A stretch of 64,000 nt of DNA from Callorhinchus milii (taxonomy: Eukaryota), in contig NW_024704744.1 of the NCBI RefSeq assembly GCF_018977255.1, forward strand, positions 67,890,001 to 67,954,000. Reading direction: 5' to 3'. Under the pieces are notes generated by a model. It had not been told where the DNA came from. It was given only the letters and a program-made list of their open reading frames with translations, and did no database searches. Position 1 is the stretch's first letter. The number at the start of each line of letters is the position of its first letter. Shown one piece after another: positions 33,609-56,340 of the stretch. The position numbers and the translations under genes are program-made.

Positions 33609-33760
33609 TTTGGTATTTGGGAACTCAAATGGCATTGCAATGGTCGATTATATTCAGAAGACTGTACTGCTCAACTTCACTACAATAGAATTATACGGCT
33701 CCAATGATCCTTATCAGAGACAACCCAAGTCTCCTCGCAAAACACGGCAAGCCTCTGGAG
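33609..33760 (+). CDS. STXBP5: STXBP5 coding exon, 152 nt
   Basis: tttcag|T TTG GTA...GGA G|gtaagc; LVFGNSNGIAMVDYIQKTVLLNFTTIELYGSNDPYQRQPKSPRKTRQASG; phase 2-1. Confidence 0.96.
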
Positions 33761-36700
33761 GTAAGCACCAATAGCCTTTAGTTTAAAGAATAATGCAGCC
33801 CATAACTGATCTTTGTAGGACTTTAGTAGATGATATGTGCCATGTCCACACAAAAAACAATCTTAAAATAAATGCACGAACAACCAGTTATCCACTGCAG
33901 AAAGGTAGGTTTGTGGTTAATGTGCAGGTAGTCAACTTATGAAATGGCATTGAGTTAAACAGGTTGTAATGGCAAATGAAAGGTCCACTGGAGCAGTAGC
34001 TGATTATATTGATAATTGGAACAATTGTACATGATTGAAGTGGGATAAGTACATTGTGCATTTACCGCTGCTCTTTAAAGACCCTCTGCCTGGGTAATTA
34101 ATTAAGGGATCTCCTGTTTTTTAAGTGAGGTGAATTTATTGTTTATGTGCAGGTTTATTTTGACCGCTAGTTTGTTTTTCGTTGCACAGAATTTGTTCTA
34201 AGCATATGAAGCAACTTTATTCATTACATGAAGTTTAATAGAGCTAATCTTGGAATAGATAAATGTCCATGAAATTAAGAATTGGAGAATAAAAGGAAAA
34301 GGGGAATTTTGGAGAAAATAAGTAACCTTGTAGATACCAAAGCATGGTTTTAGGATTTAATTAGGCAGATAGTTACCACAGTCTTCTTATTTTAATACCT
34401 GACTAAATGATAAATAAAATTCAGTTGTGTTAAAGTATCGCAAGGAAAATCATTGAATTGAATTTCAGGTGCTGCAACATCAAATGCATTAATAACAAGC
34501 CACTGAATTTCAAACTTGCTTATGGGAAAAGCATAAATGTATAAATTTTACATACGTAAAGATGGTCTGTGTGGTTAACCTTCTGCTGTTATCCTTTTAT
34601 ATGGTTGCTTCTTTATTAGTTGTTCAAAACCAGGTTGTTAATCCCTACATAATTCAAATGTGTTTATTTTAAAGAAAGACACTGAAGGTGTGGTAATTAC
34701 TATCGCTCCATCTGTACTCACTTAACAATCATAGCTAAACAGAACAATTTATTTGGCTATATTTCTGTTTGATGATTTGAAATATTTTTGTTCAGTACTG
34801 AGTGCTAAGGTAAACAATTCTAATTGATGATGAGACTTGCTTGGGTCTAAATTGGTGTCAATTAAACGTTTTTCTTTCTAGTACTGGTTCACAGATAAGA
34901 ACGTGCAAACATTTATTGCATTTTCCATCTGTTTGTGGAGATCACTGTATTCGTAAATTACAGAATTACTGTTCGATTTCTACTTAATCTGAGGGCATTT
35001 TCCAGGGTTGTGTAATATCTGTGTGTTGTCAAATCTACAAACAATGAGCCTGGTGTACTTCAATTCTTTTAAAATTGAATTCTGGTTAAGGTGAATTAAT
35101 CAAATAATATACTCTCCGAATATTAGTTTCAGACTTAAAACACACCAACGTGTCCATGCAATAACGCTGTTATATGTTGGCATGATATAAAACAATTAAA
35201 TGTTTGGTAGTCATGCTTCACTTAATCCTCTTCCAGGAATCAAATTACAACATAACATGCTCTTTGTTTCTCTGAATAATCACTGGAATTATATTTGTGG
35301 CAGATATCAAGGTTATTTTAGGTAGTTGCTCCCTTTTTCATAGTGTTTCATGTTGATTAACATGTGCCATGCACTAACAGGAGGAAACCAATTCTTCCTA
35401 CAATGGCAGAATTTAAATTCTAAATCAACTATATTCAGCTCAATGTATAGCTGAGCATTTGATACATGGTAGAGATTTTGCCTCATTTGGACATGATGCT
35501 TAATTACTCAATTAATTTACCTGTTGAACTGTTTTGAAACATAAAAAGCTTTTAGGCACCAAAAATATTTTAGAAAGCCACCTGATTATTTCAATTTGAA
35601 GGATTACTGTTATGGTTATTGTGTGATGATCTAGATCTGTTTTTCAACATGGAGCCTTGCAAATTATTTTTGCAGCTTTTAGTTGATAAAATGGACATAT
35701 TTTCCTTTCACATATTTTCAGTAGAATTCACAGAGCCCTGAGTTTTGCAGATCAATTGTTGCTCCATCTACAACTAGCATTTGCTGCTGAAACACAAGAA
35801 GTAACCTTTGCAGAAAGACAGGCGTAGATTTAACTTAAAACATATGTTCAGCGTCTCTGAGGAGTTTTATCTTAAATGGGTTTAAGTTTGAGAGAGATTT
35901 TCCCCCTCTATCCTTGGTTTCATCAAGCATTTCTTTGTCTTGCTAAACCCCATTTTTGTAGTGTTGGCTAAAGTTGCTTTTCAGGAAGGGAGAAAAATAT
36001 CGAGTTGCTGGTTAATATGAGAACAATATGAAATAGAGTGGGTAAGATACAAAGTTGTAAGGACTTTGAGAAGGGTTTAACATCTGTCTGTTTCTATCTT
36101 AGTTCTCAAGCATTGCACATATTGTTAGCTCAACATCCATGTTTTGTTTTGGTTAAGTGGCAATGTGTAAGCATTCTCAGGAAAAAATGAGGAGCACAAT
36201 CTAGTGGGAAAACGTGCCCATCTAACTATCATTGGATTTTAGATCCAGCTAAATGACACGAAAGAAGCAATCACTAGCTACACCACCAATCCAGATCTTA
36301 CCATGAATTGGCTGGGGGCATACAGCTGCAGAACACCTTCACATGAGTAAATTACAATGAGTAGGAGCTCCAGATACATACACAAACAATGCCAGGAAAC
36401 TGTATCTCTACAATTTTCAAGTATTAATTTTGAGTTAGGCATTTCAGGAGGTGATGTGACTATTTTATATCTTAAAAAATTGAGGAGGCCTCACCAACAT
36501 AGCTGTCACGTACTGGAGACATTTTTTCCCACTTTTTAAAAGAATTATTGATTCATGAAGACCAATCTGTTGTGAATCCAAAGATAACTCCAATATTGTA
36601 CAAAAGGCTGTCAACAACATAGATTCAGACAGCAGTTCTTCATTAAGAAGCAAACTGCATACCAGTGTCAAAACATCAAATCAGTGATGCTTAAGTAAAA

Positions 36701-38093
36701 AGGAATGCCATCTTGAAACTTTTATCATCAAATTATTCTATTTGTGGATCAATAATCACTATCCAAGCTGGATCGTGGCAAAAGTGCTGGAGTATGTACT
36801 AGAATAGGTGCTTAATTTTTAGTCTTTCTTAGATTCATGAACTTGGTGCTGCTTATCACACTTTAGATTTTTACCCTTCACTGACCCCACTGCTGACATA
36901 AGTTGTTAAAACAATTTTACCCAAGCCTCAATGGTTCTCAAGCTTCGCTTCTCGTCTATATTTTGCCTTTTGTTGTAACAGATTGAATTGATGTCCCACA
37001 ATTGAATCAAATTATCTCACTGGCTTTTGAGTAGAGCCAACCTATCTTAAATGTAGCTCTATTAGGTCACAAGTCATTTATATTTTCACAAATCTACATC
37101 AAAGTTAACATTTCTACATAAATGATAGTGCCATGATCAAAGCACTGATTTACAATTTATCAAGTAACTTGATAGCAAGCTTTAAATTGGAAGACAGCAA
37201 TAATCTTGTGGATGGGAATTCTGTTACAGCAGCACATGAGTTTATTGCTTTGGAATATATCAGAATTAAGCCCATTATCCCAGATTCGGATCAAAACCTA
37301 ATATTTAATAAGCTCGCTATTTAAGTTTATGCTTTCATAAGAGCAGAGTGTTAGGCTACAATACAGCATTCTTATTTATTTAAAAATGTACTTATTATAA
37401 ACCATCTTTATAACCCAACAAACAGTATTTCGGGTTTTTATTACTTCGGGTGTATTTCTGATTTTTGTAGGTCCATAGTCAACCCATGCTGTAAACACTT
37501 AACCAGGATTATCAAGAGGTTTCCTTGAACATGACTCCATTGCTTGCATTAACATTGAAGTCATCGAATGTTAATGCAAGTTATAACCATGGCATTTGTA
37601 CCTTATTGCCAACTGTGTATTTGATGAAAAATACTATCAGTTCCAAATGTGTAAGGAAAATTCTATTTCAGTAGAATCAAGTTTGGAAGTGAAGCTCTGT
37701 GTATATTGCTGATTTAATAAATGTCAATTTCCTTCGAAGGTGAAATGAAAGATTAGTTGAACCACAAGGATTGAACACTACAGATAAAATGCCCTCAGAG
37801 GATCAACCATTATAAATGAAAATTTGTTTCTGCTTTCTTCATTCGTTAAGTTTTCTTGCAACTGCATGTGCTTTTTCTGTCTTGTCATAAATACACAAAT
37901 ATATTGTTGGGGATCATAAAAGCCAGTTTGGGTAAATCTTCCATAGGAATGTAATTTTTTAATGTTTTAATTTCTTGTCTGTCTGAAGATTGCATTATCT
38001 GATGATGTGTTCTAAGTTTTTGTCTAGCAGGATATTTCTGCCAAACCATACTACTTTGGTGTCTTCGTCTTTCCTTTTCCATTGCTTCATAAG

Positions 38094-38177
38094 GCATGTT
38101 GACCGTGACTTCTTGCATGTGCGGCCTGTCTAGTTTGTATTCTGAATCTATGAAAAGGCTACGCTCTTCATACCTAA
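38094..38177 (+). CDS. STXBP5: Putative alternative cassette exon (84 nt) homologous to the STXBP5L xb-specific exon
   Basis: Long pyrimidine tract, cataag|GC...CTA A|gtaagt; open phase 1-1 frame GMLTVTSCMCGLSSLYSESMKRLRSSYL(S); similar to remembered STXBP5L NFCMRGLSNFYPDLTKRIRTSYQS at the same gene position. Confidence 0.82.
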
Positions 38178-40727
38178 GTAAGTTATCTCATACTATACTC
38201 ATTTCGGACTTGTTGCTTGCTTCCGCAGTTACTACTACTGTATAAACGGGTTATAACCGTCAAATGTTTTCCAGTCTGTTCTGTATAAACCTGCAGGCTC
38301 AAATCTACCTGCCCTATTCACATATGTGTAAGAATGATTGAATGTTATAGCATAGGTATAAACTGTTTGGCCCTCCAAATCTGCTCTCATGTTTATTTCC
38401 CTTTGATCCAATCTTAATCACACTCTCCTGATCACTCCCCATATTTTTAAATATTCTTTATTTTTAATCAGCTATTTAATTCCCTTTTAGAAATATCCAC
38501 GTCCCAATCATCTGGTATGTGAATTTTTGCTGAATAAAAATAAATTTTAACTAGTTTCCTCCCTAAATACTTATATGAATATGACATGATTGCTCATGGT
38601 GACTCCTCTGTTCTATAGACAGTAAAGGGAACAAAGCCAGAACAAATGTTCTGTCTAATTCTTCCCCATGGAGTAGACAAAATGAACCTAAAAGGGCAAC
38701 TGATCCAAAATGCTCCATAAAAAGACACCAATCACATTTAATTTGCAAAATGACTGCTATTTCCTTGTGAAACTTTTTCAAAACTCTTGTGATTCTTTTT
38801 TTTACTGCTGTATTATGGTATTGTGGCTGGCCTCACTGAATTTTTCATAAGCAGCAAAAAGTCTTTTGTAGAATCAGCCCTGCAGGGGCTCCTGAAATAC
38901 TATTTCTTTAGTTTTTCTTTTGTTTCAGAAGTCTGTTTATTCCCTCAAAATGAACTGCTAGTCTCTTTGTACTAAAATAGGGTTGTAAATCTTTTTGTTC
39001 ATCGTGAGAATTGATTGAATGAGCTCTGAAGTAGTCAAGACAGCTGCCATACAAGACAAAAATGTTTTAAAGAGTTCCAGCCTGGTTGGCATAAATATGT
39101 GCATAATGCTATTTTCGAGCCTCACTGTGAAGCAATTGTGGGAATCGCTAAAGAATTGTCATTGCAAGCAGAAACGATTGGGTGAACTTTACATGGGAAC
39201 ATAACCTTACTGAACACAGCCAAAGACGATAGTGATCCACAGTCCAATTCTAAATTTCCCAAAATATCATATCAAACACCCTAATGACGAAAATCTATTT
39301 CATCTCTTTTAAATTTGGCATTATTATTCACCCTAATTTTTTCCCTGAACATTATTGTTCCGCATATTTACAACTTGCTAGGTAAAGTACTTAAATCTGA
39401 ACAGTTTTGATGTAAGCATATTTAAGGTTGTTTATAGTGCATTGTGGCATCATGGCACAAAAAGGGTGGCCAAGTGAAACCAAAACGTGCTGAGGAATTT
39501 CACTGATTTCTGTGCTTTCATTGCTTTTACTGATTTCCGAAAGGCCTTCACCCTAGTGCCTCCTGCTTGCACACCTAAAGAAGCTGGAAATCACTAGAGT
39601 GCAGCGTCAAATGCTGAATCTGATCTAAATTGTATATTCCTACTCTTAAAATCTGTTATTGGCGACTTATTGAACATATGCCACTTGGAGGAAAAGTACA
39701 GTTTTACATGGATCAAGGAAGAACTCTTGAAGATATTGTTTGGAAGGTATAGGAAGCATCAGTCCCAGTTCAATAATTGTATTTGGTTTTTCGGCTTTCA
39801 TGTCAGGAAGACCTCTCAAAGCTCTTCACATTGTATATATTGTAAAGTGGAGTGACTGTGTTTTGTGGATGAATCTAACGGTGCTAATGGTGGTCAAATT
39901 TGCTTTGAAACTGCCTTGAACATCGATGCAAAGGAGTACCTTAGGCTATACCTTGGTTGCTCAATGTTATCACTCTTGGAATGTTTCTGTGAAAATCAGC
40001 ATGATAATATATCTTTACTAAGACGGGCAAGTCACTGGCTATCAGCTTTCAAGGGCACCTTGGCAATTCAGATACAAATACAATAAGATAAAATGTATTA
40101 GTGAAATAGATCATAAAAGTGGGAGGCAGTCATTTCGTTAAGTCATTTTAAGTTAATTACCTTGTTTTCATGCTGAACCGTGTTGCGCAGCAGGAAGCTC
40201 GCAGGGAGTTCCTGGTACCTGATGTCCACCTAGTAAGGGCTCAAACCTGTGCTTGTCGGATGTGAAATGACCAACTAGTGACTATCCTCCTTTGGTTGGG
40301 AGGTAAGCGGGGTCTCCTTTGAGATGAACTGGCTCCGAGGTGTTTTTTTTGGCATTGGAATGTTGGAATTGAGCCAGCGCTGTCTGGCGGGCTCGGTTGT
40401 CCAGTTCCTGAGACAGAAGGATCTGCAGTATTCCAGGGCACTGCTGAGGACAGCACAGTCAGTCTGGTTCATCAGCGGGACTTGGAAGGTCAGAATAGTC
40501 ACTGGGGGCAGGGACTCTTCCCGCTCTCATTAATCCTACAAGCCAAATGGGTAGGTTGTTCTAGCTCGACAAGCAGTAGGAAATGTTGCCAGGCAGTGCA
40601 GCATTCTGTTGCAGCATCTACTCTCATACTCTGAATCAGCTATTTCTTAAGAAGCAGTGATAAATTAACTCTTTAATATTTACTCTTAACTTCTGGTTGC
40701 CCTGCCCTGACCACTTTACTTCACAAT

Positions 40728-40820
40728 AGTAATCCTTACATTTGATATAGCACCTTATCACGTCATTGAGATCTCACAATGCTTCACAGGATTTACTCTA
40801 AAATGCAATGGCTGTATTTA
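40728..40820 (-). mobile_element. SINE tail fragment
   Basis: taatccttacatttgatatagcaccttatcacgtc. Confidence 0.75.
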
Positions 40821-41404
40821 GAATTGAACATCTATTTCTGAGAAATTGAAATCCCAAAATTATTGAATTACAATTTTCTACACATCTTACTTACCTCAAC
40901 AGATCCATTATCAGTTGGACTTGGATGACAATAACAGTTGCCAATTTACTATTTGTTATTTGTATTAATACTAATTTCTATCTAGAATTCTTCAGCCATC
41001 TCTCCTGCTTTCATACATCGTGGGAAGCATTTTTATTGGGCATTTAATGTCCTAATAACTCTCTGATTTTTTAAAACGCTAACTTTTTTCAAAAATAATT
41101 TATGCTCTAGTTACTGACTCACCGCCCAGTGAATTGATGCCTCCCTAATCATCATCAAAACTCCTCATATTTTCAAACAGCTCCTCTCAGCCTTCTTTGT
41201 GTTATCAAAAACAGTGCAGTTTTTCTAGCCTCTCATAAATAATGTTTCTCACCCCTGCTATAATTCTAATGAATTAATTTAATTCGGGTCACCTTTAACT
41301 AACGTGTGGGTTGGACCAAACAGTATCCAAATTTACAAATGATGACTGAACATATGCTACATAGTTGCTCACTTGAATATCGTGATCCATTGGGTGTTGT
41401 CGAT

Positions 41405-41530
41405 TGGCAATTGGCTGCTGAGTTTCGCCCACAAAATACATAGTCTATTCACTTTACAGAATATTCTGTGAAGCGCTTTGAGATGTCTCGAAGACGTGAT
41501 AAATCACTATATCAATTCCAAGGATTATTT
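41405..41530 (+). mobile_element. SINE 3' fragment
   Basis: caattggctgc...gtgaagcgctttgagatgtctcgaagacgtg...aggattatt. Confidence 0.8.
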
Positions 41531-43106
41531 TATATTAAAGTGGACTTGACTGTGTATTCTTGTGGGTGAAACACTTGCCAATTATTGAAGCTTTATTTGC
41601 CAGTTGAATTAATACTAACTAGTCCGTCTCAGATTTGAAAATGTTAGAAACTGCTGTACTGTTGAAAGTAAGTAATCACAAGGCTAATCTCAAAGATATG
41701 TCAACAAAAACTTCTGTGGACAAACTTCTGTAGTGGTATGTTGTAAACTGAGTCATTTATATACCCAACACACCAGAAGAGAGTAAGATAAGCACACTTT
41801 AGTACTTTTGCTTTGATCACCTAAGTGTCACAAAATAAATATTATAAACGTAATGTAAATATCAGTGCATGTCTGGAATTGAATGCACATTCTCTCTCAT
41901 GGAGGGATGCATCTTGCTTACCTGATTCCAGAGAATATTAAGTACAGGTTGGCGAGAGCTGAGGCTTGGGGATCACAGAGTGTGTGTTGGAGTACTGCTG
42001 GAGTCAAACCAGCTAAAACTACTTAACTTGCCATCAAGAGCACTGTCTGGCTAGGTTCCCACTGATTATCCAGTTAAAACCACCCACCTAACAGGGCTTT
42101 TCCTTGCAGGATTACCAGGAGCAGAGTGGAAAAACTCCTTGCCCCCAGCTTTTAGAATAGACACTATTCATTAGTGTAGTATTTCAGCAGAGTACAATAA
42201 TTATACAATGGTTTATTGCGTATTTATAATATGTGATGTATGTTGTGTGCTCCAGTCCTCCAGTTCCTGCCTTCAATAAAATTCTATTTCAAGTTATGTG
42301 AGATTAAGTAACTTGAATTAAAACAATGTAGATGGTTTTGGAAATTGTCAAGGCTTAAATGTAGCAAACGGAAGACATGTACATGAGGTGTTTAGAGGAA
42401 AATTCAGAGCATCCTTTAGAATAGGTAATTTGGTAGATGACGGGACCGAATGGTGGTGGTGGATGCAAATGAGCAATGTCAATTGGTATTCATGTGGTAG
42501 TCAATTTTACTGCTCATATTTAGTGTTGAACATAATGGATTTCGAGAAGTAATTTACATTTAAAACAATTAGAGGGCTATATTATAGTTGTTGAACTGTT
42601 CAACCTTTTCTTGCACTTGTATATAATTCAGTTTTATCAATTCGGTATCCCATTTCAATGTAAGTCATATAAACCCTAATAATCCTATGTGACAGACATT
42701 GTTGCCATCATAACAGTTTTAAAGTTATTTTTGACCAGGGTGAAGGAGAGAGAACAGTTACTCATTTTACATGATATAAAACATCTCTTGAATTGTACAC
42801 TCAAGCAGCAGGTTAAAGTGATTAGAAAACTAAATTTTTCTGATGTGAAATGAACTCAACATTTCCATGAATTAAGTTAATGCTTTATCCCAGTTTCATG
42901 ATGACAATATACATATTTGTTACACAAGTATATGTATTATGATGTAAACTTAAGTTTATTTTTATACCAGTGTGTCAAAATTGTATTCTGTGTTCAAGTA
43001 TTTTCATTGTATAGTAATTTTAAGATTGGTTGTCTTATTGCCTCTGAAAAATTGAGCTTTAAAAGTAGGTTTGCCTTTGTTGTAACGTTTTCACATTGTT
43101 CAACAG

Positions 43107-43169
43107 GTCTCTGTGATATTAATGAGGGTTCGGTAACTTCAGATGATCGCTGTAAATCACCCACATCGG
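43107..43169 (+). CDS. STXBP5: STXBP5 coding exon, 63 nt
   Basis: caacag|GT CTC...TCG G|gtaagt; GLCDINEGSVTSDDRCKSPTS; phase 1-1. Confidence 0.94.
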
Positions 43170-46129: not shown

Positions 46130-46189
46130 GTTCCACCTCTCCATGCAATTCTGAAGATGAACAAAAATGTCCTAATTTTATAAACAAGG
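46130..46189 (+). CDS. STXBP5: STXBP5 cassette exon (b-tomosyn-type), 60 nt
   Basis: tatatag|GT TCC...AAG G|gtatag; GSTSPCNSEDEQKCPNFINK versus remembered human GSSSPHNSDDEQKMNNFIEK; phase 1-1. Confidence 0.9.
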
Positions 46190-46295: not shown

Positions 46296-46343
46296 TGAGA
46301 ACCAAAACCAGAAAGTTTTCCAAGATCATAGTGACTGATCTAG
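46296..46343 (+). CDS. STXBP5: STXBP5 cassette exon (b-tomosyn-type), 48 nt
   Basis: ttccag|TG AGA...CTA G|gtatga; VRTKTRKFSKIIVTDL versus remembered human VKTKSRKFSKMVANDI; phase 1-1; 106-nt upstream intron. Confidence 0.9.
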
Positions 46344-47688
46344 GTATGAAACAATCATTCCCTATTTTACTAATAACTTTCTTTCTGAAGCACTAACCAG
46401 AATGCAACAAATAATCAAAGCACACTGCTTGGTGGCTTTCTAATCCACACAGTGCTTTGGGCTGTTCCGAATCTGGGAGTGCAGAGCATGATTGATTATA
46501 CACTTCATATATAAAATCGGGAATAGCTATAATTTTGTACTAAAACCAGGAAATTGAAGCTCAATCGTCAAATCAGCAATGTAATGGCTTTATCTCTTAG
46601 ATCTTGCTGATGAATTGTATCTAAAATAATTAGTTAAGAATTGAGTGTTTCTATAAATAATCATTTAGATAAATCACTGTACATGTATTGGTGTGTATGC
46701 AATACTGTCGTAACCAACTGAATACTTTAAGTGTGTGCTAATGAATAAAGAAGACCAAATCGTTTGCATGTGATTATTTTTGTCTTTAAGCCACTTTATG
46801 GTATAAAATATGTGAAATGTTTTATTTTAATTGGATAAGTGTAAGGTTGGTGTGTGCTTTAACATTCAACATTATTTTAAGCAAGAGGCTTTTCAACTTT
46901 TTCCAGAGACTTTTTCCATCTCAAGAATTGTTCAGGTAGAGATTATATCAGATATAAGCTTTCAAAACAGTTTATCTCATCACAGAGCAAATATGGAGTG
47001 TACTCTGCGTGAGCACTGGTATTATGACAGTACAACAGTGAATAAACTTTTTTAATACTGCAGTCTCACCATTACATAATTGTAACGAGAAACTCAGCTT
47101 CGGATTCAGGTCACTGTTTGGTAGCCACCCATCGAGTATGAATATAAAGCATTTCCCTCATACAGAGATGGTGTGGCAAACTTACAAAATTAAAATAATT
47201 CTGACAGTTACAATACCAGTGAAGCACAGAACCATCATTTTATTCTCACACTGACACATTTCTGAAATGTATTGTTTTCTGAAGTGCATATAGACAGGTA
47301 CACTTGATGTAAGCAAAATTGGGACCTGCCTCGGTCCCTACAGCTGAATGACTTGTGACTGGAGACTCAACAATATTTTTTTTTAAATCAACAGTCTCAC
47401 AGCAGTGGTATAAAGTGAATGATACATTAGTATAGTGGTAAGTTGCAGCATTTTTTTTTAACAAGTGAATTGGCAATGTGACTCACCTTCACAAGAGTAA
47501 AATAACTGGAACGTGCCTTCACTTGTGGATTGATCTATTTGTTCTGTGGTCAGACCACTCCTGATAGAGCCTTACTTACACACCATGTTGTCAAACTAAT
47601 TGTGTAGCGCTGTAATGTTGTTCGTGACCTTAGAAATGTGTTCCGTTTGTCTGTTTCCACATGTGAATGCCTGACCCTATAGGAAGTC

Positions 47689-47892
47689 TAATAATAATCC
47701 CTCCAAAACAAAACAATAACAAATTGGTCATTTTCAATCCACGACTGTTTGTGGGACGCTGCTGTGCGCAATTGGCTGCCATGTTTCGCCCACAAATATA
47801 CAGTCAATTCACTTTACAGTCTATTCTGTGAAGCACTTTGAGATGTTGAGAAGACATGAAAAGCGCTATATAAAATGCAAGGATTATTATTA
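47689..47892 (+). mobile_element. Headless copy of the young SINE, bounded by 12-bp inverted repeats
   Basis: Near-identical to 32186-32390; begins taataataatcc and ends ggattattatta. Confidence 0.88.
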
Positions 47893-49096
47893 TATATTAA
47901 GGGAAATTAAAATGCCTGCATGTAAAATAAAGCGAGATGTTAAGCTTAAAAGGACAATGTCTTCATGAAGAGTTTGGGCAAGGAGAAAGAGGAGTGTTGC
48001 ATGTAAATTTCCTTATAACCTCGCACACAAGTGACACAACGATTTGTTTCACCCTTATTTCCACTGTAAACAAAAAGTTATTCATGAAGATTTTACCCTA
48101 TTAAGGATAACATTCCTGGAACTGTAATTACTTGGTGTATCGGTTGCTTTTTAGATTTTTCACCTGATCAGTTTTTGTTGAGAGTTGGAAGCCTTTCCGG
48201 CTCTATGACGGTGGCAATTTCTATGGTTTATCGAGTAGTCTCGCAGCTGTTAAGGTGTTATTGTTCTGCTGTCTTGTGTTCGTTCAGTCATTCACTTGTA
48301 CGATTTTATTTCCTCCTGTAATGAAGGTACTGTCTCATCCGAGTGTATGGGCACTGGCTGCCCATTAGCTAGGCAGGCTCCACTGACCGAGGCATATCTG
48401 TCTTCACTCAACATTTACACACGCACATGTTCCAGCAGGGATCAGTGGACAGCAACCAGAAGTGGAAACTTTGACAGCTTTTGTTCTCTTTTGTTGCCCG
48501 GGGATCCAAAACCACACAACTTTTACAATGTCTGAGCAACTAACTCAGAAAAGGGAAGAGACTTATAGCTTTCAAGTCTCTGGCTTAGTTTCACTCTAAG
48601 CTGTGGCTTTACTAATAGCGATTGAGAAAGACTCCCACTTCTATACTTCTCGAGGAATGTCACATATAGTAGAACATCTCTAACCTCATCTTACTCCCTG
48701 CTTATCTGCATTGGACCTCCAATGTAGGGAATGAAGTCGGACTGCAGTGTTAGCAAATAAATTTTAGTTGAACACGTGTGCAAAGTTACTAGATACGCAA
48801 TTGAACTAGCAGGTGGAGAGATCCATATCTTGGTAAGTACTGGATTAAAGCAAGATACAAACTGCAAAGCAGTGAAAGAAAAAGCAGTAGACATGCAAAG
48901 TAACACAACTGATGTCTGCACTATTTTCACATCAACAATGAGGGGCAGAGGACTGTTCCACATTTAACATTTAATTACTACAGTTGGGGATACTGACCTC
49001 CATGGTTTTTAATAAAAGTGACTTGGTAAAATTGTATTTGATAAGAAAAATTGCAAGCACATTTTAATGATGCACAGGAGAGGCAGCGTTACTCTT

Positions 49097-51614: not shown

Positions 51615-51981
51615 GCAAACCCAAAACTCCCAACACACATGTGCGCGACTGGAGCTGCTCCACCCACAGTAGCAGTATCAAACAAACAGCATGCGGAGGC
51701 CTGGGGCTTAGCATACTGCGCGTACAGATTTGTAACAGAAGAGAGCGTTTCTAGCAGATACCGCAGAAAAAGTGCAGCTGCACTTTTCCATTGGCCCAGG
51801 ATATAGGTACTATATGCTGGTGCAAAGCCAGCTAAATAGCAAGAACACTCTACTGTCTTTTTCTAGTGACTTCCAGGTTCTGAATCGACTGACTTTTTAA
51901 AAAAAAATCTTTTTAAGGTTTACGGTGAGGTAGATGCCAACATTTTCATGCGCACATGTGTGTTGGGAGTTTTGGGTTTGC
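51615..51981. repeat. Foldback / MITE-like element with perfect 32-bp inverted repeats
   Basis: gcaaacccaaaactcccaacacacatgtgcgc (51615-51646) and its exact reverse complement (51950-51981); near-central 20-bp palindrome at 51768-51787. Confidence 0.85.
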
Positions 51982-53064: not shown

Positions 53065-53115
53065 CAAAGATGTCAAGAAAACTAAGTTTGCCAACTGAAC
53101 TGAAGCCAGATTTAG
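53065..53115 (+). CDS. STXBP5: STXBP5 cassette exon (m/b-tomosyn-type), 51 nt
   Basis: ttcttccag|CA AAG...TTA G|gttagt; AKMSRKLSLPTELKPDL; phase 1-1. Confidence 0.95.
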
Positions 53116-53639
53116 GTTAGTAATGCATTTTACTGCAACCAGTATTGAAATATACTTTTAATATTTTTGCATGTCTAGAAATAATAAATATTGTCGAGGT
53201 TCAAATACTTTGATACAGTTTACTAAATTTTCTTCCCTTCCCATTACTGCTGCAAGCTGGATGTCTATGAACTTCCCACTCTAGTAATTAAAAAGTGCAG
53301 TGCTTAACAATTTGTTGTATACAAAATCAGATTAAATTATACTGGTCTTTGTACATTTTTGTATTAAAATTAAAGTAAAACTAGTTTATTTACCAAAATG
53401 AGCTCAACGAAGAGTACAGTATCAATGCTTAGTGTGTAATTATTCTTTTCTATGCATTTCTTTGTTGTCTATCTTGGTTGTTTCTTCTTTGTAGATTTGA
53501 TTTTGACCTTTGTAAATTTTCATTTAGAAAAATATATTGAAGAATTTATTAAGTGGCAGAGTTAACTGTTTAAAGAAGAAAGGTGGAGACAATAGGGAGA
53601 GGCAGAAAATTGGGAAGAATGGAGTAAATGAAATGTGTG

Positions 53640-55090
53640 AAGAAGACACTGAAAACTTACTAAAAATAGAGGAGAACCAAGAAGCTAATGTTAGTGAGCA
53701 ACTTAGGGAAATTAACATCAGTAAAGTGTCAGTACTAGGGAAACAAAATTAGTACTATTGGGATTGAAAAATGACAATTCCCCTGGACCTGATGGCCTGC
53801 ATTCTTGGGTTTTAAAAGAGGTGGCTGCTGAGATAGTGGATGCCTTGTTTTTGATCTTCCAAAATTCTCTGGATTCTGGAACGGTTCCCATTGATTGGAA
53901 GATCGCAAACTTAACACCACTATGTAAGAAGGGTGGGAGAGAGAAGATGGGGAACTAGAGACCAGTCAGTCTGACATCAGTGGTAGGGAAAATTCTAGAA
54001 TCCTTAATTAGGGACATCGTAGTGGGATACTTAGAAAATCGTAACATGATTAGGTGAGTCAACATGGCTTTACAAAAGGAAGTCATTCTTAACAATCTTT
54101 TAGAGTTCTTTGAGGATGTAACTAGCAGGTTAGATAGGGGGAAACCAGTAGATGTAGATATTTAGATTTTTAGAAGGCATTCGAAAAGGTGCCACATAAA
54201 AGGCTGCTACACAAGATTAGCACCCATGGAATTAAAGGAAATATATTAGCATGGATCGTAGAATGGCTAACGGGAAGAAAACAGAGAGTAGGGATAAACG
54301 GGTCCTTCATAGATTGGCAGAATGTGACTAGTGGAGTGCCGCAAGGATCAGTGCTTGGGCCTCAACTATTTACAATCTGTATCAATGATCTAGACAAGGA
54401 CATAGAACTTAAATTATCTAAATTCATGGATGATACTAAGCTAGGTGGGAGAGTCAGCTCTGAGGATGACACCAAAAGATTGCAAAGGGATATAGATAGG
54501 CTAGGTGAGTGGGCAAGAAGGTGGCAGATGGAATATAATGGAGAAGTGTGACGTTATTCACCTAGGTAGTAAAAACAGAAAAGCAGGTTATTTTCTAGAG
54601 GGCGAGAGACTAGATGGTGTTAGAGTTCAGAGGGATTTGAGTGTCCTTGTACACCAGAAAGTAAGTATGCAGGTACAGTAAGCAACTAGGAAGGCTAATG
54701 GCATGTTGGCGTTTATTGCAAAAGGGTTAGAATACAAGAGTAGGGAAGTCTTGGTGCAACTGTATAGGGCCTTGGTGAGACCGCACCTAGAATATTGTGT
54801 CCAGTTTTGGTGTCCTTATTTAAGAAAGGACATACTCGCCTTAGAGTGGGTGCAGCGTAGATTCACTAGATTAGTTCCTGAGATGAGGGGTTACCTATGA
54901 GGATAGGTTGAGTAAACTAGGCCAATATTCTCTAGAATATAGAAGAATTAGAGGTGATCTTACAGAAACATATAAAATTCTTATGGGACTTGACAGAGTA
55001 GACAGTGTGAGACTGTTTCCCCTGGTTGGAGAATCTAGAACTAGGGGTCACAGTCTTAAGATTAAGGGACAGCCCTTTCGAACAGAGTTA
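53640..55090 (+). mobile_element. CR1 LINE ORF2 (reverse transcriptase) pseudogene fragment
   Basis: SPGPDGLH...WKIANLTPL.KKG...N*RPVSLTS; VPHKRLL; SGVPQGSVLGPQLF; FMDDTKL; [11 protein letters not shown]; SRTRGHSLK; several stops and frameshifts, no 3'UTR. Confidence 0.95.
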
Positions 55091-55224
55091 AAGGTGAGTG
55101 AAGAAAGTATAGAAGGGAAGGTCATCAAAATAGTATTGAACAATATCTTTAAAGCTATGTGCTCCATAATCAAATTTATGCAAAATACAGTTTACTGAAT
55201 AAATTGAGATTTGTAACGTTACCG

Positions 55225-56340
55225 CCTTTCAACTCAACCTTCAAGGTTCTGTCCTGAATGGTTCAGGTTTCCCTTTCACACCACTTACAATTTGTCTCCG
55301 CCAATGGTTTCTCTTCCAGCCCCCGCACAGTCTCATGTGGTTTTCCTCAGGACTCTGTCCTTGGTCCCCTCCTCTTCAACCACTACATGTTGGTGATATT
55401 ATCCATAGATACGGGGTCAACTTCCACATGTATGGAGATGACACCCAACTCTATCTCTGCCTCCACCCTCGATTCCAGGACAACTGGCGTCCTGACAGAC
55501 TGTCCTGTCACACATAAAGTCCTGGATGAGAGTCAACTTTCTACAGCTGATTGTCAGCACCTCAGGCACTGGCAGCATCAGCATCCACGGTTGCACACCT
55601 CACCAAGCCAGTTAGGAATTCGGACATCTTGTTCAACCCACAATTATCCTTTCTCCCCCATATCCGTGCCATGACCTGCTCTACCTTCCCCCACCTCCGC
55701 CATGTTACCTGACTCCGCCCTTGCCTCACCCTTCAGGCCGCCGAAACCCTCAACACACATTCATCACCTCAAGGATCGATTATGGAAACTCCCTGCTTGT
55801 CGGCTTCCCCAACTCTTCCCTCCACAAGTTACTGATCATCCAGAACTCTGGAGCTCGTGTCCTCTCCTGTACCAGGCTCCGTGACCCCATCACCCCCACC
55901 CTCGCCCGGTTCCACTGGCTCCCCATCCCTCAGAGAATAGAGTTTAAAATCTTGTTCTCACTTTCAAGGCCCTCCATGGCCTTGCCTCCTCCTACATCTC
56001 TGACCTGCTAACCCCCTATCAACCTGTCCGCTCCCTCGCTCAGCAGGCTCCAGCCTGCTCCAGGTCTCCACATATATTGCCCACCCTACCATCAGCGGCC
56101 AGGCTTTCAGCCTCTCTGCCCACATTCTTTGGAACTCCATCCCACAGCCCTTTGCCTTGCTTCTCTTGCCTCCTTCAAGGCACGATTCAAGAGCCTCCTT
56201 TTCGACCGTGCCTTCAGCCGCCTTCCTACCTCCCCTGCCCTCCCTCATCCCAACCCTGCCCTTCATGCTGGGATCCTGATCCCTGACTGTTCAGCGCCTT
56301 GGGACGTCCTCCCAACCTAAAAGGCACTTTACAAATGTAC
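55225..56340 (+). mobile_element. L2 LINE 3' portion (RT to tail), frameshifted
   Basis: CGFPQDSVLGPLLF, HMYGDDTQLY, FITSRIDYGNSLL, PITPTLARFHWLPIPQRIEFK; tail gggacgtcctcccaacctaaaaggcac. Confidence 0.93.

Follow-up and report, generated by a model that had tools for sequence, protein, structure and literature searches.

Tomosyn-1, the product of STXBP5, is a brake on vesicle release, and the published work consulted here uses three splice forms. The available parts of two papers on its hypervariable region (PMC3188574, PMC3948876) count three isoforms and place SUMO and PKA sites in that region, and in the first of them (PMC3188574) all four forms of tomosyn-2, the product of STXBP5L, bound syntaxin in pull-downs. 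Like the hypervariable exons of tomosyn-1 (s, m and b) and tomosyn-2 (s, m, b and xb), the exon described here is optional, keeps the reading frame and lies in the same loop, but it goes unmentioned in those parts of the two papers. It was found in the window, a stretch of 64,000 nucleotides of Callorhinchus milii DNA, on the plus strand, as are all the window features given below.

We take the 72-nt exon of STXBP5L to be the one that separates xb- from b-tomosyn-2. According to two supplements, this exon is included at 35–65% in mouse brain (PMC3636136, PMC13067610): the first gives a PSI of 35, and supplement 3 of the second gives a wild-type PSI of 64.5 and lists the exon as an iCLIP target, validated by triple knockout, with a direction of -1. 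The direction comes from a column without a legend, and it is our own reading that it denotes repression; the fall from 64.5 to 48.7 recorded for disease mice in the same supplement fits poorly with simple release from repression.

A cassette exon in the elephant shark STXBP5 gene

The middle part of a tomosyn gene fills the window, with consecutive exons from 626 to 64000 located by tblastn with a full-length relative (P0009) at 60–100% identity. The second tomosyn locus of the 991.5-Mb genome is on contig C4 and matches records labelled STXBP5L of Callorhinchus milii, and the gene in the window is therefore most likely elephant shark STXBP5 (tomosyn-1). A quick tree groups its closest relatives with STXBP5 and the C4 protein with STXBP5L, at SH-aLRT support of 100 and 96 for the two clades respectively. 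A long-branch protein, P0228, sits at the base of the STXBP5L clade; it is possibly from a jawless fish, and has a degenerate start of an STXBP5L-type exon.

Sequence and homology place the cassette exon at 38094..38177, an open frame of 28 codons (84 nt) in phase 1-1 that is the homologue of the STXBP5L exon. The acceptor AG at 38092–38093 follows a pyrimidine tract and the preceding ~60 nt are without another AG, so that an AG-free zone, tract and AAG acceptor together occupy 38032..38093, and the donor is GTAAGT (38178..38183), the same as in the STXBP5L paralog. From tblastn and run contigs, the constitutive exon upstream lies at 33609..33760, has the donor G/gtaagc and is joined to 43107 in RNA-like runs, and the 63-nt exon downstream lies at 43107..43169 behind the acceptor cag/GT. 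With the upstream exon ending at 33760 and the downstream exon starting at 43107, both junctions are in phase 1. The exon thus has canonical splice ends, a length that is a multiple of three, an open frame and matching phases, and at the level of sequence 38094–38177 is confirmed as a real cassette exon of STXBP5. The first-pass annotation had described just such an 84-nt open phase 1-1 exon with a GTAAGT donor, and its translation was reproduced from the sequence. It had also described a strong pyrimidine tract; the tract is indeed good, but the acceptor itself is weak, AAG being, on general knowledge of 3' splice sites, presumably the weakest NAG among the six exons compared.

The stretch 43099–43109 at the downstream acceptor contains a single AG and no tandem NAGNAG. 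In tetrapods and some fishes, records differ by one residue at this junction, and tetrapod STXBP5 can add one residue by using a tandem acceptor in front of the following exon, whereas the window has no such acceptor; a later gain or loss of the tandem acceptor would agree with this.

Four of 13 listed runs were examined; the runs had been found with four sampled words and none is on record as RNA. Three of them (X1, X2 and X3) are from one study with the tissue unspecified, and are taken as RNA by guess and from their GT..AG joints. The skipping joint 33760–43107 was present, with GT..AG, at depths of 18, 29 and 151 in X1, X2 and X3 respectively, but neither of the inclusion joints that the first-pass annotation had proposed as a check (33760–38094 and 38177–43107) was present in the contigs of the four runs, which drop rare variants. 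Such contigs as cover the exon all run on into introns. One of these, in X2 (depth 2.7), begins at 38093 but extends 80 nt into the next intron and so gives no junction evidence, and X9 has no coverage of the gene's exons.

Skipping alone in three expressing runs is what would be seen if the exon were silent or nearly so in this species, either as a conserved regulatory element or as a pseudo-exon carried over by gene predictors, and the AAG acceptor and the lack of an exon-bearing isoform of this species among the protein records returned point the same way. We nevertheless consider silence very unlikely. Because contigs drop rare variants, the runs show skipping and not silence; moreover, the peptide has 27/28 identity to relatives, its frame and splice sites are intact, the exon is conserved like a constitutive one, and its paralogous counterpart is included in mouse brain at the levels given above. 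We infer that the exon is included in some tissue of this species.

Conservation and age of the exon

A 50-residue query gave six matches among 91 candidates, each a full-length tomosyn in which the peptide sits at the junction predicted for it, and 26–27 of the 28 residues of the window peptide are identical in full-length STXBP5 records of five other assemblies. A region search gave 684 matches, of which 120 were listed, and cluster look-ups added further records. Among the matches listed, named STXBP5 isoforms with the insert come from ray-finned fishes, frogs, lizards, snakes, birds and mammals; the 15 mammalian genera among them, none of which is human, carry it intact and in frame (Mus, Rattus, Meriones, Arvicanthis, Ctenodactylus, Callithrix, Canis, Capra, Myotis, Miniopterus, Pseudorca, Orcinus, Lagenorhynchus, Physeter and Notamacropus). 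The exon-bearing isoforms in the databases are predicted models (X-numbered or of Ensembl type), and those of mouse (XP_036012002.1), rat (XP_063131071.1), marmoset (XP_078226396.1) and parrot (XP_061234542.1) are orthologues with the same 28-residue insert at the same junction and no difference of substance. Since the insert is present in fishes, frogs, reptiles, birds and mammals, the exon is pan-gnathostome and already in databases, a circumstance that had been named in advance as one that would lower its novelty. Further inserts, specific to their lineages, are found next to the cassette in Anolis and toothed-whale STXBP5 models (P0045/P0046, P0131/P0132).

By group, the window peptide is matched at median identities of 64–96%, and the constitutive exon before it at 72–94%. 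In hand-picked records compared without gaps, the medians for the insert and for the preceding constitutive exon are 64% vs 72% in ray-finned fishes (n = 12), 79% vs 82% in birds (n = 12), and 75% (21/28) vs 78% in mammals (n = 13), and by these figures the cassette exon is about as conserved as its constitutive neighbour. A script sorted 202 records of >400 aa into STXBP5 with (120) and without (37) the exon and STXBP5L with (28) and without (4) it, leaving 13 unclassed that by eye comprised one with the exon, nine without and three unusable; because exon-bearing forms were what the searches sought, the counts cannot be taken as frequencies. Exon-skipped STXBP5 forms are annotated too, and both forms are found within one assembly (P0012/P0153-P0166).

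The first-pass annotation had supposed that the exon survives in this fish and has decayed in mammals, and that its CxC pair could be palmitoylated. A relic of cartilaginous fishes, lost or decayed in mammals and acting through a palmitoylated CxC pair, would agree with the mammalian STXBP5 records without the exon, which are common, with the drift evident in some mammals and in snakes (the wallaby is identical at 14/28), and with the presence of CxC in 29 of 44 distinct STXBP5 versions, most tetrapods included. The intact, in-frame and annotated exon in the 15 mammalian genera, mouse, rat, marmoset, dog, whales and bats among them, nevertheless refutes mammalian loss. The second Cys is missing in perch-like fishes, in dog and in all STXBP5L (CxC is present in 0 of 4 distinct versions), so the pair is not family-wide and the proposal of palmitoylation is weakened, and a search for tomosyn and palmitoylation found no paper on tomosyn palmitoylation by title or abstract start. 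We regard the relic account as hardly tenable.

A search of the shark's own genome with the 29-aa peptide gave three matches at E<=10, namely itself, the STXBP5L paralog (C4:13619717, E 0.027, 74%) and one weak match with a stop. The order of exons at the STXBP5L locus on C4 is that of STXBP5, with the exon at the same position and in phase 1-1. An HMM built from the 44 distinct STXBP5 versions scores STXBP5L versions at 10.7–25.8 bits, with the best of 750 shuffled proteins at 4.4, and the 12/25 ungapped match to STXBP5L given in the first-pass annotation was reproduced with a turtle STXBP5L protein (P0107). The shared place and phase, together with HMM scores above those of shuffled proteins, put the exon before the STXBP5/STXBP5L duplication, as had been proposed. 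According to annotated STXBP5L proteins, the STXBP5L acceptor lies 12 nt further downstream than that of STXBP5, a shift whose direction the quick tree leaves unpolarised. The STXBP5L exon is 66 nt long in this genome and 72 nt in mouse; in the region C4 13619650-13619800 it is two codons shorter than that of tetrapods, as it is in two rays.

Among the papers listed by the literature searches none describes the STXBP5 exon, the term 'xb-tomosyn' did not occur in the set of papers in which it was sought, and the accessible parts of PMC8377282, PMC11266407, PMC13232099, PMC5529015, PMC5199341 and PMC8187152 hold nothing on it. The exon is thus real, ancient and database-known, and apparently unstudied. 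Already in public gene models, it reveals no new kind of system; but as a fourth optional exon, one that is intact in mouse and rat, it would double the number of tomosyn-1 forms possible, and the usual constructs and primers may miss it.

Rbfox motifs in the two paralogs

Rbfox binds (U)GCAUG, and upstream or exonic sites favour skipping, according to the available part of PMC10551640. Such motifs lie in or beside the STXBP5 exon at three places: a full TGCATG in the upstream intron (37863..37868), the core GCATG at the exon start (38094..38098), and a full TGCATG within the exon (38114..38119), which derives from the Cys-Met codons and is also present in the STXBP5L exon here and in mouse. 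The counterpart of the motif at 38094 is intronic in STXBP5L, 12 nt before the exon in this genome. In mouse Stxbp5l, compared by eye from the accessible portion of PMC3636136, GCATG lies 13 nt before the 72-nt exon and out of codon register, and TGCATG is found inside and downstream, a layout equal to that on C4. In a DNA alignment, 10 of the 12 bases that open the STXBP5 exon are identical in the stretch that is intronic in STXBP5L (binomial 8e-5, for a comparison chosen after the fact), as constraint at the RNA level would predict. Two GCATG occur in 8 of 6392 sliding 84-base windows, a figure that is not independent, as it includes the exon itself and is subject to codon constraint. STXBP5L copies have a further TGCATG downstream, which would favour inclusion, whereas the window has none in the 300 nt downstream of the exon.

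Motif conservation is therefore seen to the paralog in this genome and in mouse. What is added here is that both paralogs keep (T)GCATG motifs at homologous places, one of which is intronic where the STXBP5L acceptor differs, so that a putative splicing control element persists in the two duplicates although the boundary of the exon has shifted past it. In mouse the paralog exon is listed as a direct RBFOX target, whereas no such listing was found for the STXBP5 copy; by analogy with STXBP5L we would expect Rbfox control of STXBP5 as well, and the exon is likely switched by Rbfox proteins, which would hold it back by binding (U)GCAUG both within it and at its start. The account that we favour, and consider probable, is of an ancient frame-keeping STXBP5 cassette, kept across jawed vertebrates, skipped in the RNA examined, likely repressed by Rbfox, which on inclusion would add a peptide to a loop predicted to be disordered. 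A broader proposal, which we advance tentatively, is that 'xb-type' tomosyn-1 isoforms exist in all jawed vertebrates and are co-switched with their tomosyn-2 twin by Rbfox control that predates the duplication; the Cys-Met pair would then be a coded RNA binding site, and GCATG would have passed from exon to intron at the STXBP5L acceptor shift.

The same ancient exon could instead be conserved for its protein only, with GCATG a by-product of codons and with inclusion set by MBNL, CELF or Nova and the weak AAG acceptor. The exonic TGCATG may be a by-product of Cys-Met coding. CM is present in 41 of the 44 distinct STXBP5 versions, and the core L-S-x-L-Y-S-E-S-x-K-K/R-L-R is conserved at the protein level. 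In protein records Gly-Met is replaced by Gly-Val in parrots, bats, marmoset and gundi and by Asp-Ile in perch-like fishes, and the first GCATG is probably lost where it has changed, that is, in several lineages. Upstream of the STXBP5L exon on C4 lie UGC repeats (14 in 300 nt), which mouse keeps too and which also agree with such an account. However, both here and in mouse STXBP5L keeps GCATG in the intron, outside any codon constraint, and the mouse paralog exon is listed as an RBFOX target in the available part of PMC13067610. On balance we find conservation for protein only rather unlikely, and retain the Rbfox-repressed cassette as the preferred reading.

Control by SLM2/T-STAR was considered and rejected, as its tomosyn-2 target is a different, 171-nt exon controlled by SLM2/Sam68 (PMC5397175). 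In the knockout screen, as far as the accessible portion of PMC3636136 shows, the change for the 72-nt exon was only from 35 to 43 PSI.

The inserted peptide and its loop compared with known systems

The other optional exons of the loop are present in the window. The 36-aa 'big' insert is encoded by two exons located by tblastn and run contigs, one of 60 nt (46130..46189, first half) and one of 48 nt (46296..46343, second half), with a 106-nt intron between them that is spliced in X1–X3, and the 17-aa 'medium' insert by a 51-nt exon (53065..53115) located by tblastn and sequence. Either half of the 36-residue insert occurs alone in other species (the first in mouse P0143, the second in P0013), and tomosyn-1 therefore has at least four optional exons in the loop. 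In STXBP5L, C4 13642368-13642421 and 13658541-13658642 correspond to a homologue of the 17-residue 'medium' exon and to a ~34-residue optional exon shared with turtle, indicating that further members of the optional-exon set are older than the duplication. A perfect 32-bp inverted repeat (51615-51646 / 51950-51981, ~300 bp apart) lies in the intron that precedes the 51-nt exon, several dispersed repeat copies are found in introns of this part of the gene at 40432-41539 and 47685-47899, and LINE-like fragments at ~53500-56300.

In an AlphaFold2 model of P0005 (mean pLDDT 74), residues 678–780 have pLDDT<50, and the insert, at 693–720, lies inside this stretch and has only a 4-residue helix, itself at pLDDT<50. 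When included, the exon would lengthen a regulatory loop, predicted to be disordered, of the second beta-propeller by a basic stretch of 28 residues rich in serine. As the four tomosyn-2 forms all bind syntaxin, the insert is likely to tune rather than enable function, and we infer a tuning role and not a structural one, whether through phosphorylation or through a short helix that would bind a partner or membrane. Our best guess is a phosphorylatable basic stretch. K/R-K/R-L-R-x-S is present in 28 of the 44 distinct STXBP5 versions. For the window peptide an amphipathic moment of 0.42 falls short of significance against shuffled sequences (p 0.07), and no significant amphipathic helix is seen for mouse, marmoset or the paralog of this genome. 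The helical moment is significant in a teleost and a turtle STXBP5L version (p 0.005 and 0.002), which would fit conservation for the protein.

Comparison with Lgl, whose membrane-binding polybasic loop (10-11) is phosphorylated by aPKC, yields an analogy of place only. In the available parts of PMC4621827 and PMC11996676 that loop lies between the same conserved second-propeller blocks, and it too has basic residues beside serines, but no sequence homology was detected, and the net charge is +10 as against +2 for the window insert, which has 3 K/R in 28 residues. Descent from the Lgl polybasic motif was rejected, as among the 150 representatives searched with the HMM no Lgl-like protein and no tomosyn of invertebrate type scored above noise; these hold one isoform per cluster, so that absence outside vertebrates is weak evidence.

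The closest known counterpart remains the 72-nt exon of STXBP5L. It differs in having 24 codons (22 in cartilaginous fishes), no second Cys and the extra downstream TGCATG. Like the STXBP5 exon, it is annotated in both included and skipped forms (P0170 vs P0171), and the two exons are alike in position, phase, donor, core residues and (T)GCATG layout.
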